This document shows positions 12,808-26,761 of a stretch of 64,000 bases of DNA, one piece after another. Location: contig JAUQVK010000101.1 in assembly GCA_039794845.1 (NCBI GenBank), positions 50,416-114,415 on the forward strand, written 5' to 3'. The translations under genes and the position numbers were made by a program. Below the pieces are notes generated by a model. It did not search any database, was not told the origin of the DNA, and saw nothing but the letters and a program-made list of their open reading frames with translations. Position 1 is the stretch's first letter. Each line of letters starts with the position of its first letter. The DNA comes from Thermostichus sp. DRC_bins_24 (GTDB lineage: Bacteria > Cyanobacteriota > Cyanobacteriia > Thermostichales > Thermostichaceae).

Positions 12808-14175
12808 ATGACCGTTGCCGCTCCGGATAAGCTGCAAGCCTTACGTTCCGCCCTCACCGGCATTGAAATCATCACGGATCCGGTGCAGATCACCAAGTTA
12901 TCGCTGGATTTTTATCATTACAGCCCCGTGCTCACCCGGCAACTGAGCGACAAACGAGGGGATCTGGTAGTACGCCCCGCCAATGAGGCAGAAGTGTTGC
13001 GGGTAGCGGCAGCCTGTGCCCAACAACGGATCCCGGTCACGATTCGCGGCGCCGGGACAGGCAACTACGGCCAGTGCATTCCGATGGCGGGCGGTGTCAT
13101 CCTGGATGTGAGCAAGCTGAACCAGGTGCTCTGGGCTAAACCCGGAGTGGCACGGGTTCAGGCGGGGGCCAAGTTGATGGCCATCGACAAACAAACCCGC
13201 GAGATTGGTTGGGAGATCCGCATGGCCCCTTCCACCTATCGCACTGCCACAATTGGGGGCTTTATTGCTGGCGGCAGTGGGGGCATTGGCTCCATCACCT
13301 ACGGTCAACTGCGGGATCGGGGCAATATCCTAGGGTTGCGGGTGGTCACCTTGGAGGAAGAACCGCGCATTATTGAGCTGCGAGGAGATGAAGTTTTCAA
13401 GGTCAGCCATGCCTGGGGACTCAACGGCATCATCACCGAAGTGGAAATTCCTCTGGGGCCTGCTTACCCTTGGGCAGAATTGGTGGTGGCCTTTCCCCGT
13501 GAGGGGGGCTTTATGCCCTGTGCCCATTTTGGTCAAGCCCTGGGAGACGCGGACGGGATCATCAAAAAAATGATCAGCCTGCACGCCTGGCCCATCCCCA
13601 GTTACTTTGCACCGCTACGGGGATCCATACCCGAGGGATCCGCCATTGCCCTGCTGATGATTGCCGAATCGAGTGTCGAACCCCTGATGGAGTTGATCCG
13701 CGAACATGGAGGCCAGGTGGTTTACCACAAAACCGCCCAAGAGGCCAGCAAAGGGATCATGCTGGGGGAATTCACCTGGAACCACACCACCCTACACTGT
13801 CGCAGCGTCGACACAGGCCTTACCTATTTGCAATCGGCTTTTCCGACCGACCGAGAGCTGAAAATGGTGCAGCACATGTATGAGTATTTTGGCGATGAAG
13901 TGCTGATGCACCTGGAGTTTATCCGTATTGATGGGCAAGCTACCCCGGTAGGTTTACAAATTGTGCGTTTTACCACCGAAGATCGCCTCAATGAGATTAT
14001 GCGCTACCACGAAGAGCATGGGGTATTCATCGCCAACCCCCATACGTTCATCATCGAAGATGGCGGGCGCAAAGTGATGGATCCACGTCAGATTCGCTTC
14101 AAAGAAGAAGTGGATCCCTATGGGTTGCTCAACCCCGGAAAAATGCGCACCTGGACGGAACGAGCCTCAGCATAG
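12808..14175 (+). CDS. FAD-binding oxidoreductase (GlcD/VAO family)
   Basis: RGAGTGNYGQ, ATIGGFIAGGSGG, C-terminal DPYGLLNPGK. Confidence 0.9.
   Translation: MTVAAPDKLQALRSALTGIEIITDPVQITKLSLDFYHYSPVLTRQLSDKRGDLVVRPANEAEVLRVAAACAQQRIPVTIRGAGTGNYGQCIPMAGGVILDVSKLNQVLWAKPGVARVQAGAKLMAIDKQTREIGWEIRMAPSTYRTATIGGFIAGGSGGIGSITYGQLRDRGNILGLRVVTLEEEPRIIELRGDEVFKVSHAWGLNGIITEVEIPLGPAYPWAELVVAFPREGGFMPCAHFGQALGDADGIIKKMISLHAWPIPSYFAPLRGSIPEGSAIALLMIAESSVEPLMELIREHGGQVVYHKTAQEASKGIMLGEFTWNHTTLHCRSVDTGLTYLQSAFPTDRELKMVQHMYEYFGDEVLMHLEFIRIDGQATPVGLQIVRFTTEDRLNEIMRYHEEHGVFIANPHTFIIEDGGRKVMDPRQIRFKEEVDPYGLLNPGKMRTWTERASA
14119..14171 (+). repeat. 53-bp direct repeat, copy 1 (3' end of the oxidoreductase gene)
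   Basis: Matches 14948-15000 with 3 mismatches. Confidence 0.92.
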
Positions 14176-14203
14176 TCTACTTGATCTAGTTGATCTAGAA
14201 GGT

Positions 14204-14479
14204 TTACATCTGTCCCAACAACTTGTCGTATTCTGCATGGGAGCCGATCCAAAACCAGATCATGGTATCCCCATCAACCTGACCTACCGCCCGGTAGTTC
14301 TTGCTAATACGGGCAGAATAAAAATAAATTGGCAACTCTGGGTGCACTTTTTTGAAATGTAGACTGGGATAGTTCGGATCTTCCTGGAACAGGCGATAGG
14401 CTGCACGGGCCTGCTGTTGAACCTGCTCAGGCAATCCAGTAAACAACTTACGAAACTGGGCTGTAGTGCGCGACTTCAC
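14204..14479 (-). CDS. RelE/ParE-like type II toxin
   Basis: MKSRTTAQFRKLFTGLPEQVQ...DPNYPSLHFKKV...YRAVG...WFWIGSHAEYDKL; GTGA overlap with the upstream gene. Confidence 0.85.
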   Translation of the reverse strand: MKSRTTAQFRKLFTGLPEQVQQQARAAYRLFQEDPNYPSLHFKKVHPELPIYFYSARISKNYRAVGQVDGDTMIWFWIGSHAEYDKLLGQM

Positions 14480-19080: not shown

Positions 19081-20100
19081 CTATTTTTCATCCGGGAAAT
19101 TTCTCAGCCAGGACTCCATCTCGCTGACGCGATCAGCCCCATCCAGTTCCGGCAGGGATCCCCTCTCGGTGAAAGGGGGACAAGTGGATTGCGGGGGAGT
19201 GGGTTGCTGAATGGCTCTCAAGAAAACATCGGCCAAGTCGGCATAACCTCGGTCATTGGGGTGAAAGCCATCGGCAATTGGCCCAGGGAAAAAGGAGTCG
19301 CGGCTGTAGGAGCGTGGATCGCAGAGCACATCCACCACCGGGATCCCCTGCTGGCTGAGGGGGTTAATGACCCGTTGACTCAGGCCAAGGGAAACCGTAG
19401 CCAACAGTTGGCGCACACTGCCGGGTTGCTGTTGCCCCAAAGGGATCAGGGCAAAGTTGGGTAGGTTGGCCACCACAATGCGGGCCTGTGGGGCACGGGC
19501 GCGGATCCCTTGCAGCAGCGTTTGGTAGTCGGTGGCAAATTGCTCGATTTGACGGTCGATAAAAGAAAAGGGATCCCCTCCCGCTAGGGCAAAGCGAGCG
19601 GCCGCCAGGGTAATGGCGTTGGTGTCGTTCCCTCCGATCCAGAGGGTAACCAGGGTGGTTTCGGGGGGAATGCGCGGCACTTGATCTTGTAACAAATTGG
19701 CCGGGATAGACGGCCCCAAAGCTTGAATCTCTGGGCTGATCACCGCCCCTGAACGGCCCAAGTTGGTCAGCAGAACCGGTGGCGGCAAAGATTGGGCCAG
19801 ACGGGGCACATAGCCGGTTCCATTGGGGCACTCCAGGGGATCCGATCGCTGCGGTCGGGTTCCGGCCAGGTTGGCGGGGCCATCACAGGAAACGGACGCA
19901 TTGATACCAACCGCATCGCTAGCCCCCAGAGCCGTGTAACGGGTGAGGGTGGGCGGGCGGGTCACCACCGACTCGGAGCCTCCAGAACAGGCGACTAAAC
20001 CCAAACTGAGGGTGAGGGTTAAGGCCAGAAGCAATCCAGTCCAGCGCTGTCGGGTTACCGCTCGGGAGAATGGGGGATCCCCTAACGTATTGACACTCAT
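19081..20100 (-). CDS. SGNH/GDSL hydrolase, probable lipoprotein
   Basis: ALGASDAVG, IGGND, DGFHPNDRGY; lipobox LVAC. Confidence 0.9.
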   Translation of the reverse strand: MSVNTLGDPPFSRAVTRQRWTGLLLALTLTLSLGLVACSGGSESVVTRPPTLTRYTALGASDAVGINASVSCDGPANLAGTRPQRSDPLECPNGTGYVPRLAQSLPPPVLLTNLGRSGAVISPEIQALGPSIPANLLQDQVPRIPPETTLVTLWIGGNDTNAITLAAARFALAGGDPFSFIDRQIEQFATDYQTLLQGIRARAPQARIVVANLPNFALIPLGQQQPGSVRQLLATVSLGLSQRVINPLSQQGIPVVDVLCDPRSYSRDSFFPGPIADGFHPNDRGYADLADVFLRAIQQPTPPQSTCPPFTERGSLPELDGADRVSEMESWLRNFPDEK

Positions 20101-20261
20101 CGACTCTGTTTCCCTCTTGCGACCTGCGGTTGCTCACCGCCAGCGGCGAGGTCCATGAAACACCTAGGGCATCCTAGCCAAGAATATGAAGCGGGCTATT
20201 CCTGTGGAAGGCTGTTGCAGCTCCAGCGGCCAAGAAAGGGAGCAGCGAGTATCGTGGGAGT

Positions 20262-21551
20262 ATGGCGCTGCGTTTTTGCAAGTCCCGCACCTATCACGAT
20301 CCCCTGCACGGAGCCATCAGCCTCGATGGAGGGGATGCAGTTGAGGCACTGCTCATTCGCCTGATCGATACCCCCGCCTTCCAGCGCCTGCGTCGGATTC
20401 GCCAGCTGGACACCGCCTTTTTCACGTTCCATGGGGCGGAGGGATCCCGGTTTACCCATTCAGTGGGGGTATTGCACATCGCCCGGCGACTGTTCGACAA
20501 ATTGGCCCGCCGCTACGTGGAGTTGCGCCCCTATCGAGCCGTGACCCTTGCCTCTGCCCTGCTGCACGATATCGGCCATAGCCCCTTTAGCCACGCCGGG
20601 GAGGAGATCTTCGGTTGCCACCACGAAGTCTGGACAGCTCGCATTTTACAAGAGGATCCCCAGGTGTCTTCGTTGCTGGCGGAGTTTGATCCTCAGCTTC
20701 CGACCCAGATGCAGCAGGTGTTGCAGAAGCAGTTTCCCTTGCCGCTGGTGGGGCAGCTGATCTCCAGCCAGCTGGACTGCGACCGCTTCGATTACCTCAT
20801 GCGCGATAGCCTGCTCACCGGTGCTCAGTACGGCCATCTGGATTTGGATCGGATTGTAACGGTGCTGGATTATGACCCGGAAACGGGATCCCTTGCCATT
20901 CCGGCCCGCAAAGGCTTGGGGGCAATCGAACATTACTTGGTGGTGCGCTATTTCATGTACACCCAGGTGTACCAGCACCCAAAAAGTTTGTGTGCCCGCT
21001 TCATTCTGGATCGGCTGTTCAAACGGGCGCAGTTGTTGTTGCAAAAAGGGGAACTGGAACTGGATCCCGTCTTGACGGCTTGGTCTTGGGCTTCGCTGGC
21101 CGCCCAAAAAGGGGATCCCTTTGATTTGCCCTTGCCCCTCTACCTAGCGGCGGATGATGTGCTCTTTAGCTATCCGTTGCGCTTTTGGGCGATGTTTGCG
21201 GTTGACCCCATTTTGTCGGATCTGTCGCGGCGCTACCTGGATCGGGATTTGTTTAAGGCCCGTAACCTCTCCCACTTGCCCGAAGACCGGCGAGAAAAAC
21301 TGCTCGCCACCGTCAGCGAGAAAATGCTGCGGGATGGACTGGATCCCGAAAGTTACCTAGGGATCCGCTCAGCCCACACCCAGGGCTACAGCCTCTACGC
21401 CCAAGGGATCCAACTAAAAACCGACCGAGGTTACGAAGAAATTGCCGATCTCTCCCCCCTAGTGCGCTCCCTTGTAGAAACCCAACTGCAAGTCTGGTTG
21501 ATCTTTCCCCGCCCCTACAGCGATATCGTCGAGGGGTTTTTGTATGCCTAA
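20262..21551 (+). CDS. HD-domain phosphohydrolase (dNTPase-like)
   Basis: FQRLRRIRQL, SRFTHSVG, LLHDIGHSPFSH, DCDRFDYL. Confidence 0.93.
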   Translation: MALRFCKSRTYHDPLHGAISLDGGDAVEALLIRLIDTPAFQRLRRIRQLDTAFFTFHGAEGSRFTHSVGVLHIARRLFDKLARRYVELRPYRAVTLASALLHDIGHSPFSHAGEEIFGCHHEVWTARILQEDPQVSSLLAEFDPQLPTQMQQVLQKQFPLPLVGQLISSQLDCDRFDYLMRDSLLTGAQYGHLDLDRIVTVLDYDPETGSLAIPARKGLGAIEHYLVVRYFMYTQVYQHPKSLCARFILDRLFKRAQLLLQKGELELDPVLTAWSWASLAAQKGDPFDLPLPLYLAADDVLFSYPLRFWAMFAVDPILSDLSRRYLDRDLFKARNLSHLPEDRREKLLATVSEKMLRDGLDPESYLGIRSAHTQGYSLYAQGIQLKTDRGYEEIADLSPLVRSLVETQLQVWLIFPRPYSDIVEGFLYA

Positions 21552-21575
21552 TGCACTTCAGATGGGAATGGGCGG
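21449..21575 (+). repeat. 127-bp direct repeat, copy 1 (3' end of the HD gene plus 24 bp downstream)
   Basis: Matches 24025-24151 with 5 mismatches. Confidence 0.95.
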
Positions 21576-21645
21576 AGCCTTTCGAGACTTATTGAGCGTG
21601 GAGTCGGGATCTGCTCGGTAACCATCGGGTCCCTTACCAGGCTAG

Positions 21646-22188
21646 CTAAGCCGTAGGGGGCCACAGATGTCTAAACTTGAATCCAGTCAGGGGAGTAGAC
21701 TGTACTTTCTCGATGAAACCATCGGTTACATAGGTGCGAACCAGCCGGGTTTCGGGAACCTTGAAGATGATATTATCTCCAATTTTATCCAGGCAGAATG
21801 CGGGCCGAGTGATGGAGCTGCGGTTTCGCCTTTGTGTCTCTTCTTTGTCCAAAACATCAATAATATTGGTAACGTTATAGGCGAAGCAAGTATCTTCCCC
21901 TTCATAAATGAGCGGTAATAATTCCCCATTAGCCAATAAAATATCTCCGAGCAGGTCAACAGCCCTTTGGCTAACGACACTTCCAATCAAACCTGTAAAA
22001 CAAGCTGGGAAGTCACTTTTTGGCCTGCTTTCATGATCTGGAATCAATGTGATTTTCAATGGGCTCCAACTAGTAATAGGATCCCCGTTGCAAAAAACTG
22101 GGTTTTCAAGTGATTCGTCAGAAAGAAATCCTTGGTAAACATTGGCGTCAGGATAAAGCTCGTAAACATTCATGGATATCTCCTTCAC
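21646..22188 (-). CDS. Putative immunity protein (Imm11/DUF1629-like)
   Basis: DFP...VVSQRAVDLL...GELLPL...AYNVTNIIDVLD...IFKVPE...YVTDGF...LTGFKF pattern; directly downstream of the AHH gene. Confidence 0.75.
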   Translation of the reverse strand: MKEISMNVYELYPDANVYQGFLSDESLENPVFCNGDPITSWSPLKITLIPDHESRPKSDFPACFTGLIGSVVSQRAVDLLGDILLANGELLPLIYEGEDTCFAYNVTNIIDVLDKEETQRRNRSSITRPAFCLDKIGDNIIFKVPETRLVRTYVTDGFIEKVQSTPLTGFKFRHLWPPTA

Positions 22189-22199
22189 TTGGTCAGGGG

Positions 22200-23780
22200 C
22201 TATAAAATTGGAAAGGCTCGGTTGAGTAGTTGCTGCCTAATCTCTTCCAGTTCCTGTAACACTCCTTGTTTCCCGCCTGAAGCATCTTTCTCTGTTAGTC
22301 TGTTCCGCACCTCCAGATGATAAACTATCGTATGAAGTGAAGCATGAGGCATTCCTTCCACTTGAGTTACTGAAGAGTCTGCGGGCAGAGGAACACCATT
22401 TTCTGCAGAGTTGATATCGATCCCATGCTTAGCTAGTATTCCGCGAGATTTTTCGGCATTAGCATCGTTCACAGCAACAATGTGATGGGCTTCTGCACCG
22501 CAAGGTAATCTTTGATTGGTTGCCAGTTCAATCGCTCTTGCTAGTTTGGCTGAGTCACTGTTACCCGAAGCAGCAGGCCGCCGACACTCAATCAGAATGG
22601 TCAAATCTTCATCCTGGTCTAAGGCTTTACTGCCTTCGAAAATGCCTCTGGAAGCAGGTGAAGAAGATCCCAGAGGGCTGGGGCTTAGTTCTACATCATC
22701 GATTTGAAAGCCTAATGTACTTGGCTTTACTCTCCCTCCGGAGAGGCCCTTAATTGTTAAATGACTGTTATAAGAATCGAGATTAACTAAATTGCTCTCT
22801 ACATAGCTCTCACCCAGAGCAATGTCATCTTCTGTTTGAATTGAACCCTGATTAGGCCCCGATAGAGCCTCTAATCTTAGCGCTATTTTGTCTCCATCTT
22901 GCAAAAGACCGTTGTCTTGATACTTTATTTTGAAACTGTAGCTGCTTACAATCAACCGGGCAGGAATATTCTCTACATATTCAGATGGGACATCAGGGTC
23001 TAAGTTGATCTCCACGGTCACCACGCGAGGGAACACGTTCCCCCCTGGAGAGAGGTTAAAACCTCTCGTACTTGTCCCTGATATGACCTGGCTAGGGTCA
23101 ATACCAAAACGTACCGTGGTAACTGGTACAACTCCATCGCTGTAGGCAATAATCTCGAGCTTATTCTTTCCTGGCTTGATTGGAACAATGACTTTCCCTG
23201 CATCTGAACTCAGGGGACTGGGGAGAACCAGCCGTTTTAAGAACGTACTCGAAGAGGTATTTTCATGCTGTACAGTAATATCTACGATGTCACCATCTAC
23301 AATTGGGGAGCCTGTTCTTGGATTGATCCCTGCATCCCAGAAGTACACAATAACTTCATCTGTATTGACGGTTAATTGAGGCGTTAGTATCCTTGCCTCA
23401 TGTTTTTTGTCTTTATCTATGAGCTTGGGTTCAATACAGCTTTCAAGCTCAGGTGGAACAGGCTCTGTTGGCTCGAGTTCGACATCACAAGAGGGCGGTG
23501 GGGTTGGACGATAGCAAACATTCTCCCCGACTTGGTTGCATGCGCACCCAGGTGGCTTATGGCACTGAAAGTTTGCGTTAATGCAGGTATCACCACAAGC
23601 TTTGCCAACGACACATCTTCTGCAACACGTATCACAGGGTACTGGTACTCCATTGCCAGAACGGCTCACAGAAGGAGCTTGAACCTCAGGCAAACTCCCT
23701 ATCGTGGTTGGACCCCCCCCGCAAGCATAAAGTGTCAGCAAAGAAAAGAGGAGTATAAATAACGTTAGATACTTGCGCAT
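22200..23780 (-). CDS. Lipoprotein with Cys-rich module and C-terminal AHH (HNH/EndoVII-fold) nuclease; putative polymorphic toxin
   Basis: Lipobox LYA-C; CCRRCVVGKACGDTCI...CHKPPGCAC; C-terminus EAHHIV...GIDINSAENGVPLP...HASLHTIVY. Confidence 0.85.
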   Translation of the reverse strand: MRKYLTLFILLFSLLTLYACGGGPTTIGSLPEVQAPSVSRSGNGVPVPCDTCCRRCVVGKACGDTCINANFQCHKPPGCACNQVGENVCYRPTPPPSCDVELEPTEPVPPELESCIEPKLIDKDKKHEARILTPQLTVNTDEVIVYFWDAGINPRTGSPIVDGDIVDITVQHENTSSSTFLKRLVLPSPLSSDAGKVIVPIKPGKNKLEIIAYSDGVVPVTTVRFGIDPSQVISGTSTRGFNLSPGGNVFPRVVTVEINLDPDVPSEYVENIPARLIVSSYSFKIKYQDNGLLQDGDKIALRLEALSGPNQGSIQTEDDIALGESYVESNLVNLDSYNSHLTIKGLSGGRVKPSTLGFQIDDVELSPSPLGSSSPASRGIFEGSKALDQDEDLTILIECRRPAASGNSDSAKLARAIELATNQRLPCGAEAHHIVAVNDANAEKSRGILAKHGIDINSAENGVPLPADSSVTQVEGMPHASLHTIVYHLEVRNRLTEKDASGGKQGVLQELEEIRQQLLNRAFPIL

Positions 23781-24024
23781 AACCGTTATTGGCTGGAGAT
23801 ATTTGCCTCAAAACTAAGTCGTTTTACAGGCCCATGCAAGCCTGAACTCATCTTTATTTTAATTTTTATTTTGCTTGATTTGAAATGATTAAGTGAATTA
23901 GCAAAGGGATTTACTACTGATTAGGTATTTGATATTTTGATTCACAAATTACTTGCAATTCTTTCTCTTCCCAGTATCGGCTTTCCCCGCGCTCTGCCAA
24001 AGGCAATGTAGCGTTGGTTTCGTT

Positions 24025-24151
24025 TCTCTCCCCCTTGGTGCGCTCCCTTGTGGAAACCCAACTGCAAGTCTGGTTGATCTTTCCCCGCCCCTACAGCGAT
24101 ATCGTGGAGGGGTTTTTGTATGCCTAATGCGCTTCAGATGGGAATGGGCGG
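24025..24151 (+). repeat. 127-bp direct repeat, copy 2 (orphan 3' end of the HD gene)
   Basis: Encodes the same LSPLVRSLVETQLQVWLIFPRPYSDIVEGFLYA* peptide as copy 1. Confidence 0.95.
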
Positions 24152-24160
24152 GAGAACGAC

Positions 24161-25363
24161 ATGTTGGAGGGCTTAGTGGGGGGGCAGGCTGGGATCCCTG
24201 GCTTACTTATGGGGGTGCTGTCGATGACCGCCCTCCTGATTGGGCTGGTGGCCTTGCGGCTGTGGCGAGCTTTGGCGGCTTCCCCCTGGCTGACCGATGT
24301 CCCTGAAAACAAAAACACCGAGGTTGCTGAGGCGATGGCGCGTGTGGCGGTGATCGTGCCCGCCTACAACGAAGCAGACAATGTGGTGGACTGCCTGACC
24401 AGCATTCTGGAAAGTACCTCGGCTCCGCTGCAGGTGTGGTTGGTGGATGATGACTCTACCGATGCCACCTGGGATTTGGCCCAAGCCTTGGCTGCCGACC
24501 GACCAGATCCGCGGCTGCATTTGTTAAAAGGGGATCCCCGGCCAGAGGGGCAGGTGTGGGTGGGCAAAAACTGGGCCTGTGCTCAGGCGGTTGCCGTCAT
24601 TGAGGCAGACTATCTGCTGTTTCTCGACTGTGATGTGCGGCTGGGATCCGGCGCGATCGAGGCAGCTCTGATGCAGCTGCTGGAAAGCGACAGTGGCTTG
24701 GTCACCGTGGGGCCGCAGTTGGTGTGTGGTTGCCTGGCGGAATGGCTGGTTCAGCCGATCATGATGACCCTTCTGGCGGTGGGGTACAACTTTGCCGCCG
24801 TCAACGATCCGGATACCCCAAAAGCCTTTGCCTTCGGGCCCTTTATGTTGTTCCGTCGCCTCGCCTACGAACAAATTGGCGGACACGCCGGGGTAGCCGA
24901 TGTGGTGGTGGAAGATGTCACCTTGGGCCAGCGCATCAAAGCCAGTGGATTGGGACTGAAGCTACGCTTAGGTGGAGAACGGGTTCGCAGCCGCATGTAT
25001 GCCGACGGGGCCGCCCTCTGGGAAGGTTGGACGAAAAACTGGTTTTTGGGTTTGGAGCGCAACTGGTTGCTGGCCCTGTTGGCCATGGTCACGATTTTGG
25101 TGATTTGCAGTTTGCCTTGGCTGGGGTTGATCCTGGCTTTGGCCACCCAATCTCTGGGGGTGCTGTTGGCCAGTTTGGCCGGGATCACGGCTCAACTGGG
25201 GATTCGACTGCTGCTCAGGCATTGGGCCCACTTGCCGCTACGCTACTGGTGGCTGACGGCGGTGGGGGGATGGGTAACGGCTGCCATCGTTTTGGCCTCG
25301 GCGATTCGCACCAGCACCGGACGCAACTGGACTTGGCGGGGCCGATCTTTGGCCACCCCCTAA
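24161..25363 (+). CDS. Glycosyltransferase family 2, membrane-bound
   Basis: VIVPAYNE, VDDDSTD, GKNWAC, FLDCD, VVEDV; C-terminal TM helices. Confidence 0.92.
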   Translation: MLEGLVGGQAGIPGLLMGVLSMTALLIGLVALRLWRALAASPWLTDVPENKNTEVAEAMARVAVIVPAYNEADNVVDCLTSILESTSAPLQVWLVDDDSTDATWDLAQALAADRPDPRLHLLKGDPRPEGQVWVGKNWACAQAVAVIEADYLLFLDCDVRLGSGAIEAALMQLLESDSGLVTVGPQLVCGCLAEWLVQPIMMTLLAVGYNFAAVNDPDTPKAFAFGPFMLFRRLAYEQIGGHAGVADVVVEDVTLGQRIKASGLGLKLRLGGERVRSRMYADGAALWEGWTKNWFLGLERNWLLALLAMVTILVICSLPWLGLILALATQSLGVLLASLAGITAQLGIRLLLRHWAHLPLRYWWLTAVGGWVTAAIVLASAIRTSTGRNWTWRGRSLATP

Positions 25364-25471
25364 CCGGCTCAACAAACTTACAGCGGGCACCCCGAACATG
25401 GTCTAATGGGGGGTGTTTGGGGCGGTTTCGGTGCTCCCCAGTTGGGCTCACGAACGGTGGAATAGCGAGAT

Positions 25472-26761
25472 ATGCAAGTTCTGGTCATTGGCTCTGGGGG
25501 ACGAGAACACGCTCTGATTTGGAAGCTACTGCAATCCCCACAGGTTACTCAGGTTTACTGTGCACCCGGCAACGGCGGCATTCGCCAGATGCGCCGCTGT
25601 CAAACCTTGGCTTTGGCAGCCACGGATATTGAGGGGTTGGTGCGCTTTGCCACGGTGCAAGGGATCCGTCTGACGGTGGTGGGGCCAGAGGTGCCCTTGG
25701 TGGAGGGGATCGTCGATGCGTTTCAAGCGGCAGGACTGCCCATTTTTGGGCCGAACCGGGTGGCCGCCCAACTGGAGGGCAGCAAGCTCTGGGCCAAGCA
25801 ACTGATGCAAGAGGCCGGGATCCCAACGGCTCGTGCTGCCGGTTTTCAGGATTTGTCGGCGGCCCTGGCCTATCTGGATTCCCAGTCTTTTCCGCTGGTG
25901 GTGAAGATGGATGGTCTGGCGGCGGGCAAGGGGGTGACCATCGCCCAAGATCGCGAGGAGGCGGTACAGGCTCTACAAGCCGCACTGGCCCGGCCTTCTG
26001 GCTCTGTGCTGATCGAGGAGTTTATCTCCGGGCAGGAGGTCTCCGTACTGGCCCTGACGGATGGCCAAATCTGTGTGCCACTTTTGCCTGCTCAAGACTA
26101 CAAGCGCATTGGCGAAGGGGATATGGGGCCCAATACCGGTGGCATGGGGGCTCATGCTCCCGCGGATCATGTGCTGACACCGGCCTTGCTGGCTCGCATT
26201 CAAACCCAGGTGTTGGATCCCACCCTGAAGGGCCTCCGGCAACGGGGCATTCGCTACCAGGGGGTGATCTACGCCGGGTTGATGATCACGCCCTCAGGGG
26301 ATCCCTACGTGTTGGAGTATAACTGCCGCTTTGGGGATCCCGAGGCACAGGTGATTTTGCCCCTGTTGAAAAACCCCCTCGAAGAGGTGCTGTTGGCTTG
26401 TGTTGAGGGGCACTTGGCCCAGATCCAGTTGCAGTGGAAACCGGGCTATGCCGCTTGCGTGGTGATGGCTGCACCGGGGTATCCCGAGAGTTACGAACGA
26501 GGGATCCCAATCCTCGGCTTAGAGGCGGCAGCGGAAACTGGGGCTTTGATCTTTCATGCGGGCACTCGTCAGGCGGGAGGGCAGATCTTCAGCGATGGGG
26601 GGCGTGTCTTGTGCATCACCGGTCAGGGGGCCAGTTTACCGGAGGCCTTGGGCCAAGCCTATGCCGCGGTGGAGCGGGTGCAGTTTGCCAAAGCCCACTA
26701 CCGGTTGGACATTGGTAGCCGAGCGCTGGGAGCCGCTGTTCGTCGTGGTGTGGTGGAATGA
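25472..26761 (+). CDS. purD: Phosphoribosylamine-glycine ligase
   Basis: GSGGREHAL, DGLAAGKGV, GPNTGGMG, EYNCRFGDPE. Confidence 0.98.
   Translation: MQVLVIGSGGREHALIWKLLQSPQVTQVYCAPGNGGIRQMRRCQTLALAATDIEGLVRFATVQGIRLTVVGPEVPLVEGIVDAFQAAGLPIFGPNRVAAQLEGSKLWAKQLMQEAGIPTARAAGFQDLSAALAYLDSQSFPLVVKMDGLAAGKGVTIAQDREEAVQALQAALARPSGSVLIEEFISGQEVSVLALTDGQICVPLLPAQDYKRIGEGDMGPNTGGMGAHAPADHVLTPALLARIQTQVLDPTLKGLRQRGIRYQGVIYAGLMITPSGDPYVLEYNCRFGDPEAQVILPLLKNPLEEVLLACVEGHLAQIQLQWKPGYAACVVMAAPGYPESYERGIPILGLEAAAETGALIFHAGTRQAGGQIFSDGGRVLCITGQGASLPEALGQAYAAVERVQFAKAHYRLDIGSRALGAAVRRGVVE

Follow-up and report, generated by a model that had tools for sequence, protein, structure and literature searches.

A predicted lipoprotein toxin with an AHH nuclease domain and its Imm11-type partner on a foreign islet of a Thermostichus genome

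The stretch of DNA analysed here, 64,000 nucleotides of contig JAUQVK010000101.1 of the cyanobacterium Thermostichus sp. DRC_bins_24 (hereafter the window; positions are counted from its first letter), carries a small AT-rich islet with two adjacent genes. According to the list of open reading frames (ORFs) of the window, the first gene encodes a protein of 526 amino acids, a predicted lipoprotein that ends in an AHH nuclease domain, and the second, which begins 11 nt downstream, encodes a protein of 180 amino acids counted from a GTG start. From the sequences we consider it likely that the two genes form a toxin/immunity system of interbacterial conflict, and the conflict is probably antagonism between closely related cyanobacteria. 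A first-pass annotation made from the letters of the window had proposed such a pair, and its coordinates and strand for both ORFs are correct.

Judged by its sequence, the toxin ends in an intact AHH (HNH/EndoVII) DNase domain. Pfam AHH (PF14412) matches residues 427-518 with 58.3 bits against a cut-off of 22.3, a match confirmed on the genome, and the residues that constitute the AHH (Tox-AHH) signature in excerpts of Zhang et al. 2012 (PMC3482391), i.e. [AG]HH, N, H, H and Y, are all present as A431-H432-H433, N461, H479, H483 and Y487. In an alignment of 50 AHH rows (A3), H432, N461 and H479 are invariant and A431, H433, H483 and Y487 are conserved in at least 90% of the rows. Score and signature together bear out the AHH domain of the first-pass annotation. 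Also confirmed is its statement that known delivery domains are lacking: besides AHH, a Pfam scan of the toxin at E<=1 returned just a weak match to HNH_2, with no RHS, PAAR, VgrG, haemagglutinin, TPS, FHA, VENN-type or LXG/WXG element. A search of PDB sequences with the toxin gave only a marginal match to an Rhs AHH-like protein (E 0.36).

The relationships of the downstream protein place it in the Imm11 immunity family. Homologues that are 24-51% identical occur in three related genomes; 15 of 17 members of the partner family match Imm11 (PF07791) at E<=0.01, the best at 2e-10, and among five homologues scored singly three lie above the Pfam cut-off (30.4, 22.6 and 34.1 bits) and two below it (15.6 and 18.9 bits). 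The profile of the 17-member family matches one solved structure, 6a4c_A, which is MXAN_0049 of Myxococcus xanthus (E 3.1e-5); a PDB search with the single sequence from the window found no match. In excerpts of PMC12077131, MXAN_0049 is described as conferring immunity to MXAN_0050, an AHH nuclease that functions in kin discrimination and is delivered by a type VI secretion system (T6SS) with a PAAR protein. Thus, the earlier description of an Imm11-like partner 11 bp away is right as to the spacing, and as to the family it stands through the relatives only, the partner's own Pfam score being below the cut-off. Because homologues begin at the equivalent of Met6, the ATG at 22173 is the likely start of the partner (175 amino acids). 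None of the 17 family members has a hydrophobic N-terminus and, lacking a signal peptide, the family is predicted to be cytoplasmic. If the protector is cytoplasmic and the nuclease is exported, then the nuclease should end up in a cytoplasm once more, as delivered toxins do.

That the nuclease is exported is suggested by the other end of the protein. A PROSITE-type rule, applied as a regular expression, identifies a lipobox with its Cys at residue 20, preceded by a basic start and a hydrophobic core with a mean Kyte-Doolittle hydropathy of 2.3 over residues 5-19, in agreement with the lipoprotein signal noted earlier, and the lipobox is kept in 11 of the 12 family carriers whose N-terminus was examined. 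Given that the leader is conserved in an 88%-identical allele (P0001) and in the EndoU-bearing relatives described below, the ATG at 23780 is supported as the start. Public gene calls and the ESM Atlas record begin the protein at residue 38 (GTG, 489 amino acids; window 23667-23780 omitted), which conceals the lipoprotein signal; other members of the protein cluster of the toxin are called at 482-534 amino acids. With two copies of Lgt and one of LspA encoded in the genome, lipidation of the toxin is feasible. The conserved leader also bears on the possibility that the pair is an addiction module, similar to a toxin-antitoxin system, that stabilizes the islet and acts inside the producer. A two-gene mobile unit without other cargo would suit such a module; however, an intracellular toxin would need neither a leader and lipobox that are conserved throughout nearly all carriers nor approximately 400 residues of extracytoplasmic-type modules (Cys, Pro-rich linkers and beta-sandwiches), and we therefore regard this explanation as very improbable.

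These modules, which form the carrier between the leader and the nuclease, match no named family: residues 1-400 have no Pfam or NCBIfam assignment, Pfam searches at E<=10 with the Cys-rich module, domain A and domain B separately gave nothing, and neither did NCBIfam with the Cys-rich module and with small proteins that consist of this module only. Domains A and B are paralogues (hhalign probability 94%, E 1.3e-7) that share a D-x-G...DGD motif and a later S-x-G..P..T motif; this relationship is visible by profile comparison only, and by BLASTP it is not significant. An AlphaFold2 model of residues 266-526, based on the 50-row alignment, has a predicted local distance difference test score (pLDDT) of 93.4 and a predicted template modelling score of 0.87 and contains a beta-sandwich at model residues 10-135 followed by the helix-strand pattern of the nuclease. 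Searched with this model, the PDB gave no Foldseek match at E<=0.001, and VIA-align against approximately 48,000 chains gave only generic beta-sandwiches (best Z 6.3) from S-layer, PLAT/C2, Calx-beta/CBD, macroglobulin and Ig/FN3 domains. In the model, the fold class of domain B is clear, without a specific relative that could be named. The ESM Atlas contributed no usable feature match, and none of its structural rows exceeded a TM of 0.46. For residues 1-275 the model was poor, with a mean pLDDT of 56 and values below 50 in the Cys-rich module, and it was left out of the fold searches.

Domain B and the nuclease are joined by a conspicuous element. A conserved ECRR motif contains Cys399, and a PCG motif directly before the AHH domain contains Cys427; both residues are present in 15 of 15 rows of the family in alignment A3, and a Cys occupies either column in none of the 35 other AHH rows. 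We infer that these two residues may form a disulfide that brackets the loop at residues 401-426, and by analogy with toxins that are nicked in a loop this segment is a candidate processing site.

The most informative evidence for a toxin system comes from relatives of the two genes. Among 41 genomes compared (own, genus, family, order and class), a match to the toxin was found in 10 and a match to the immunity protein in four, all of them in the taxonomic family of the window. Residues 1-269 are 35-36% identical to lipoproteins of two relatives, G022 and G015, that have EndoU_bacteria C-termini (43-44 bits for this domain), and each of these is followed by an ORF of its own of 140-141 amino acids. 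Compared with each other, the two EndoU proteins share 89.9% identity in their N-terminal 288 residues but 49% in the toxin part, and their downstream ORFs share 39%. Two to three further genes in G022, G015 and G021 have the same leader and Cys-rich module, a different middle domain and two different C-termini. Two of these genes, at loci L029 and L031, have C-termini without a Pfam, NCBIfam or significant PDB sequence match, and the genes with unnamed C-termini are followed by ORFs of 153 and 216 amino acids. Hence, a constant N-terminus is combined with varied C-termini (AHH, EndoU_bacteria and at least two that are unnamed), and the downstream gene changes with the toxin, being Imm11 after AHH and an unrelated ORF after the others. 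The search for the same N-terminal region on other C-terminal toxins, which had been recommended as a check, was thus successful in related cyanobacteria. As separate observations, L029 4300-5851, L031 398-2140 and L030 2353-3111 are candidate new toxin/immunity families, and L029 has a Phe instead of the lipobox Cys.

The distal part of the toxin also recurs in relatives. Residues 267-524, i.e. domain B and AHH, are found in G017 in two arrays. The first contains a full-length lipoprotein AHH toxin of 614 amino acids with an Imm11 gene and then three orphan cassettes, whose starting points lie in the Pro-rich linker, within domain B or at AHH, with an Imm11 gene after each; the second contains in addition a SUKH-1/TPR protein and an immunity gene without an adjoining toxin. 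In G013 and G020, larger lipoproteins ending in AHH are followed by two or three Imm11 paralogues. Orphan toxin/immunity cassettes are present in all three relatives. In six of six loci of relatives the cassettes are more AT-rich than the surroundings fetched with them (0.40-0.455 vs 0.46-0.53). Together, the exchange of C-termini on one carrier and the orphan AHH/Imm11 arrays back the polymorphic-toxin arrangement proposed in the first-pass annotation. Independently of this, the toxin-less immunity gene of G017 (L022 12446-12979 on contig G017:C44, beside the SUKH-1/TPR gene at 13099-14232) is, at 50% identity, the closest among the relatives to the immunity gene of the window and may represent stockpiled protection against toxins of the window's type. 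Other large lipoproteins that adjoin AHH/Imm11 arrays or share part of domain A are found at L024 655-2334, L025 4492-7437 and L033 1058-6099, and among these there are two weak VWD matches, one Calx-beta match and one weak Cadherin-like match.

Alternatively, the 526-residue protein could be a nuclease that works outside the cell or on its surface to scavenge DNA or to remodel the matrix, with the partner as an intracellular inhibitor that guards the producer before export. NucA/NuiA of Anabaena would be the model for such a secreted nuclease with its inhibitor, and an export signal together with a DNase domain and a partner without a signal would be equally expected of it. The Cys-rich module also fits this explanation, given that elsewhere it is mostly C-terminal in secreted proteins and that, among 63 proteins of at least 140 amino acids that contain it, 32 carry a metallo-beta-lactamase domain, and the one of these that was scanned is ComEC-like. 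A scavenging enzyme, however, does not account for a carrier that also bears an EndoU RNase and other C-termini, each with a different partner, or for the orphan toxin/immunity arrays in relatives. Moreover, the islet is of foreign composition and sporadic, being unmatched in all 11 congeners compared, which speaks against a scavenging enzyme because one would expect conservation and invariance of a housekeeping enzyme. We consider this alternative a slim possibility and favor a toxin/immunity system.

The Cys-rich module is of interest beyond this family. It occurs widely in other phyla, with 42 of the 47 loci in genomes and at least 478 stretches in metagenomes. Of 121 ORFs examined at loci L046-L167, 115 have the module at their very C-terminal end. 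Small proteins of less than 140 amino acids account for 58 of these 121 ORFs; the 63 longer ones include, besides those with a metallo-beta-lactamase domain, one with Endonuclease_NS and one with Endonuclease_1. In the single metallo-beta-lactamase example that was scanned with NCBIfam, the match is to the C-terminal part of ComEC/Rec2. The module appears to be an as yet unnamed domain that accompanies secreted nucleases.

As read from its sequence, the gene pair arrived as a foreign islet of 2.4 kb. GC content is 0.43-0.49 over 21.6-24.0 kb compared to approximately 0.6 in the flanks, and 0.452 in the islet compared to 0.552 in the whole window. The octamer GGGATCCC has 84 copies in the 64-kb window and none in the 2449 bp of the islet, where approximately 3.2 would be expected at the density of the window; composition and octamer count both agree with the AT-rich, GGGATCCC-free islet of the earlier reading. 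Two copies of a 127-bp direct repeat, 96% identical, bracket the 2449 bp of unique sequence. When positions 19500-26000 of the window were searched against 11 other genomes of the same genus, the islet was unmatched in all 11. In eight of these the flanks abut, with the left and right matches overlapping by 87-127 bp, as expected if the repeat is present in a single copy there; in G009 and G002 the flanks are 153-230 bp apart on one contig and part of the right-hand gene is unmatched, and in G003 the right flank is unmatched. In five of five comparisons the right copy of the repeat is nearer to the same-genus genomes than the left copy, an indication that the left copy arrived together with the cassette. 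That the repeat copies are still 96% identical suggests a recent insertion. Combining these observations, we infer that the cassette entered on DNA that also contained the end of a related HD gene. One end of the islet would have been integrated through homology and the other through an illegitimate join, i.e. by Campbell-like or homology-facilitated illegitimate recombination. Contigs of a hot-spring metagenome span both islet boundaries, and contigs of the same run carry toxin alleles that are approximately 89-94% identical; this run is possibly the source sample and hence not an independent witness. The islet-less joint was not seen among metagenome DNA contigs, whose cover is fragmentary and whose best run is possibly the source sample. 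At its right-hand end, the islet has 39 nt (23986-24024) that match another contig of the same genome, G000:C11:39873-39910, with 90% identity.

A foreign islet could also be an inactive relic of a past transfer in which the ORFs are open yet unused. Related loci do decay: one has lost the lipobox Cys, three have a frame-shifting poly-T tract, and G006 retains an N-terminal stub. In the window, neither ORF is disrupted and no catalytic residue is missing, a full-length allele that is 88% identical and a fragment that is 95% identical exist in other assemblies, and the repeat copies have hardly diverged. In light of these data, a relic is most unlikely. As to the decaying loci themselves, the poly-T tract is located inside the signal-peptide codons of paralogous toxin genes, at approximately 4678 in L028, 5155 in L027, 4316 in L029, 2393 in L030 and 421 in L031. 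The gene is in frame at T8 (L028) or if the tract is interrupted (L027) and out of frame at T7 (L029, L030) and T9 (L031), a variation that reflects either phase variation by slippage or homopolymer errors of assembly; the toxin gene of the window has no poly-T tract. The stub in G006, a complete genome of the same genus, has 118 amino acids (L032 4830-5186), comprises the leader, lipobox and Cys-rich module followed by a stop, and is AT-rich (0.43 vs 0.556 in its surroundings); one metagenome contig (L088) has a leader nearly identical to that of the stub.

The family is rare as well as sporadic. A phmmer search of 1.84 billion representative proteins gave 1456 matches at E<=0.001; among the 150 matches listed nearly all cover the AHH part only, residues 1-269 matched one representative, an EndoU fusion cluster, and domain B matched approximately nine. 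In 400 other genomes sampled across the phylum, the domain B profile gave one weak match (E 3.8e-4). From these searches the carrier appears to be very rare and the family to be restricted to one cyanobacterial family. Differences between alleles are unevenly distributed: relative to P0001, domain B differs at 27 of 130 residues and the remainder at 37 of 396 (Fisher p=0.001), and relative to the 95%-identical fragment (P0008) five of nine differences fall within residues 439-444 of the nuclease. Though very few sequences are available, this pattern fits domain B as a specificity domain and residues 439-444 as a putative patch of contact with the immunity protein. A run of changes at window 22451-22470 (residues approximately 437-444) is also observed on one metagenome contig.

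Who the target might be is suggested by the same features. Excerpts of Zhang et al. 2012 (PMC3482391) give immunity genes, immunity arrays and a lineage-confined family as the pattern of intraspecific or close-kin conflict. A toxin aimed at non-kin, such as other mat bacteria, grazers or phage DNA, would be compatible with beta-sandwich domains that have generic adhesin-like folds, and nothing positively favors it; the cognate cytoplasmic immunity gene, the extra immunity arrays and the confinement of the family to one cyanobacterial family all argue against it, and we consider such a target highly improbable.

Based on these results, we suggest a scheme in which the toxin would be exported, lipidated at Cys20 and thereby kept attached to a membrane, on its periplasmic or its outer side. 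Release from the anchor, vesicles or contact would bring it to a neighbouring cell; domain B, as the most variable part, would recognize the target; the loop bracketed by Cys399 and Cys427 would be a candidate site of processing; and the AHH domain would enter the cytoplasm of the target and cut DNA, with cells that contain the cognate cytoplasmic Imm11 protein being protected. In the best reading, the toxin would be exported by the Sec pathway and processed by signal peptidase II (Sec/SPII), tethered by its lipid, freed by cleavage in the linker or carried on vesicles, and imported via a receptor, with domain B choosing the target. Direct delivery by contact is about as defensible as release or vesicles. 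Provided that the pair is a toxin/immunity system, we tentatively prefer release followed by bacteriocin-like, receptor-mediated import, which we hold to be somewhat short of an even chance; contact delivery from a surface anchor is possible but doubtful, delivery on vesicles is rather unlikely and any other route is quite unlikely.

Several observations weigh against this scheme or against a toxin/immunity system altogether. The partner in the window itself scores 15.9-16 bits on Pfam Imm11, below the cut-off of 22.1, and the genome contains one AHH gene and one immunity gene, with orphan cassettes not found in it. The typical association of the Cys-rich module with secreted nucleases elsewhere would also fit a non-toxin extracellular nuclease. 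The ORF list of the islet contains no machinery for secretion or transfer. Hcp was not found in the genome, with an Escherichia coli control that matched. LolA was not found either; a Synechococcus elongatus control was also silent, so that this result says little, and placement of the lipoprotein in the outer membrane or at the surface is not assured. Profile searches of the genome with Pfam Imm11 and with ShlB, for the CdiB/ShlB family, matched no control genome and are not readable. The allele comparisons rest on two sequences, and three metagenomic relatives with domain B and AHH (P0010, P0012 and P0018) are without a lipobox, indicating that lipidation is not obligatory for the domain B/AHH module.

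The features of the islet and of the two proteins are compiled in Table 1. A scan for promoters and terminators gave counts at chance level, including the promoter-like sites in 23781-24024. The one RNA run examined yielded 0 contigs, which counts neither for nor against expression of the genes.

Table 1. Features of the islet, the two genes and the modules of the toxin, with positions in the window
Feature	Position	Strand	Basis and remarks
Left copy of the 127-bp direct repeat	21449..21575	+	103 nt from the 3' end of the HD-domain gene (20262-21551) and the 24 nt that follow it
Islet, 2449 bp, AT-rich, inserted; cargo is the immunity and toxin genes only	21576..24024	.	GC content, no GGGATCCC, no match in congeners
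Immunity gene, Imm11 type	21646..22188	-	180 aa from GTG; likely ATG at 22173, 175 aa; no signal peptide
Toxin gene, lipoprotein-type polymorphic toxin with C-terminal AHH nuclease	22200..23780	-	526 aa
AHH nuclease domain (HNH/EndoVII superfamily), residues 427-526	22203..22502	-	Pfam, catalytic residues, confident model
Loop between Cys399 and Cys427, residues 401-426 (26 residues)	22503..22580	-	Family-specific Cys pair
Beta-sandwich domain B, residues 271-400	22581..22970	-	Most variable part; travels with AHH; ends in conserved ECRR (Cys399)
Beta-sandwich domain A, residues 126-270	22971..23405	-	Common to EndoU-bearing relatives (BLASTP of residues 1-269 vs L027, L028); pLDDT 65-86, moderate
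Pro-rich linker, residues 91-125	23406..23510	-	Sequence; orphan cassettes of relatives start inside the equivalent linker
Cys-rich module, 10 Cys, residues 49-90	23511..23636	-	Invariant Cys columns in alignment A2
Gly/Pro/Ser-rich linker, residues 21-48	23637..23720	-	Sequence; pLDDT <50 in N-terminal model; presumably disordered
Signal peptide and lipobox, residues 1-20; Cys20 is the predicted lipidation site	23721..23780	-	Regular expression, hydropathy
AT-rich non-coding stretch, presumed promoter region	23781..24024	-	GC 0.42-0.46; assigned from position
Right copy of the 127-bp direct repeat, duplicated fragment of the HD gene 3' end	24025..24151	+	Repeat search

Thermophilic mat cyanobacteria are a classic model for the coexistence of closely related ecotypes and, to our knowledge, the delivery of toxins between bacteria has been little explored in cyanobacteria. 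An islet that is present or absent and encodes a variable recognition domain is a concrete candidate for kin discrimination or competitive exclusion in such populations. The analysis also points to two unnamed modules, namely the widespread Cys-rich module tied to secreted nucleases and the beta-sandwich with the DGD motif, and to at least two unnamed candidates for C-terminal toxins. The system would gain greatly in interest if the lipoprotein passed from cell to cell or if expression proved to be phase-variable.

The pair shares elements with several known systems. As in CdiA-CT/CdiI of contact-dependent inhibition (CDI) and in Rhs systems, the family, in its relatives, combines a constant N-terminus with a variable C-terminal toxin, cognate immunity and downstream orphan arrays, and CdiA-CT/CdiI and Rhs orphans are promoterless cassettes of a C-terminus and its immunity gene. 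In contrast to the thousands of residues of CDI and Rhs proteins, the toxin here has 526, and the Pfam scan found no TPS, FHA, RHS, PAAR or VENN-type elements. Like the pair, nuclease colicins and S-type pyocins have a carrier, a variable recognition domain, a DNase of the HNH superfamily and a tightly linked Im gene; unlike this toxin, colicins have no signal peptides and exit by means of lysis proteins, and no sequence similarity to the carrier is known. NucA/NuiA of Anabaena, similarly to this pair, consists of a secreted cyanobacterial nuclease and a cytoplasmic inhibitor; its nuclease is of a different family, we know of no polymorphism or orphan arrays in this system, and the carrier in the window differs in being shared with an RNase toxin.

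The M. xanthus pair MXAN_0050/MXAN_0049, for which a role in kin discrimination is described as shown by experiment in excerpts of PMC12077131, has a toxin domain of the same family, and its immunity protein is matched by the profile of the partner family. The difference lies in delivery, which there involves T6SS and PAAR, whereas here the leader is of the Sec/lipoprotein type and no Hcp was found in the genome.

SitA/SitI of the Myxococcales is the closest experimental analogue, with a likeness that appears to be functional. Both toxins have a type II signal whose lipobox is followed by a disordered stretch (presumably so in the window), a family-specific N-terminal 'escort' region and a swappable C-terminal nuclease, and in both cases there is a downstream gene for cytoplasmic immunity and a location on mobile DNA. 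Excerpts of PMC5562445 and PMC8546572 state that SitA has no homologues outside the Myxococcales, occurs only with traAB and depends for delivery on outer-membrane exchange by TraA/TraB. In the Pfam and NCBIfam searches residues 1-400 match no named family and no sequence relationship to SitA was detected, and a sitB-like upstream gene is not present here. In a far-reaching version of our scheme, the toxin would be a cyanobacterial counterpart of SitA, a lipid-anchored nuclease passed by touch or by vesicles in hot-spring mats, with domain B setting the targets, the disulfide-bracketed loop being processed on entry and poly-T tracts in the signal-peptide codons acting as an on/off switch of expression in some paralogues. 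We regard this version as improbable. If true, it would be the first contact-type weapon for kin discrimination described in cyanobacteria, with a carrier fold family and a Cys-rich module that are both unnamed in databases.

The closest concept is that of Sec-exported polymorphic toxins with lineage-specific N-termini. In excerpts of Zhang et al. 2012 (PMC3482391), this class, labelled 'T2SS' (type II secretion system), includes MAFB-N of Neisseria, Microscilla-N and APD1/APD2, with APD1/APD2 of Amoebophilus following a lipobox, and Tox-AHH, Imm11, the T2SS route and cyanobacteria are already listed together there. A full-text search of the literature, with supplements outside its scope, found no paper on a lipoprotein-type carrier of polymorphic toxins in cyanobacteria. 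The remark of the first-pass annotation that such a system is not known to be described in cyanobacteria is therefore too broad; as far as this search goes it stands for the lipoprotein carrier, and it fails for Tox-AHH and Imm11, which the same source, as far as the excerpts go, already reports there. Common to the class and to the pair in the window are a signal peptide with or without a lipobox, a lineage-restricted N-terminus, polymorphic C-termini and adjacent immunity genes. The pair differs in that its carrier consists of a Cys-rich module and two paralogous beta-sandwiches, is found in one cyanobacterial family and has no MafA-like partner. In total, we regard the islet as carrying a probable toxin/immunity pair that belongs to a small, previously unnamed carrier family within a type of system that is already known.

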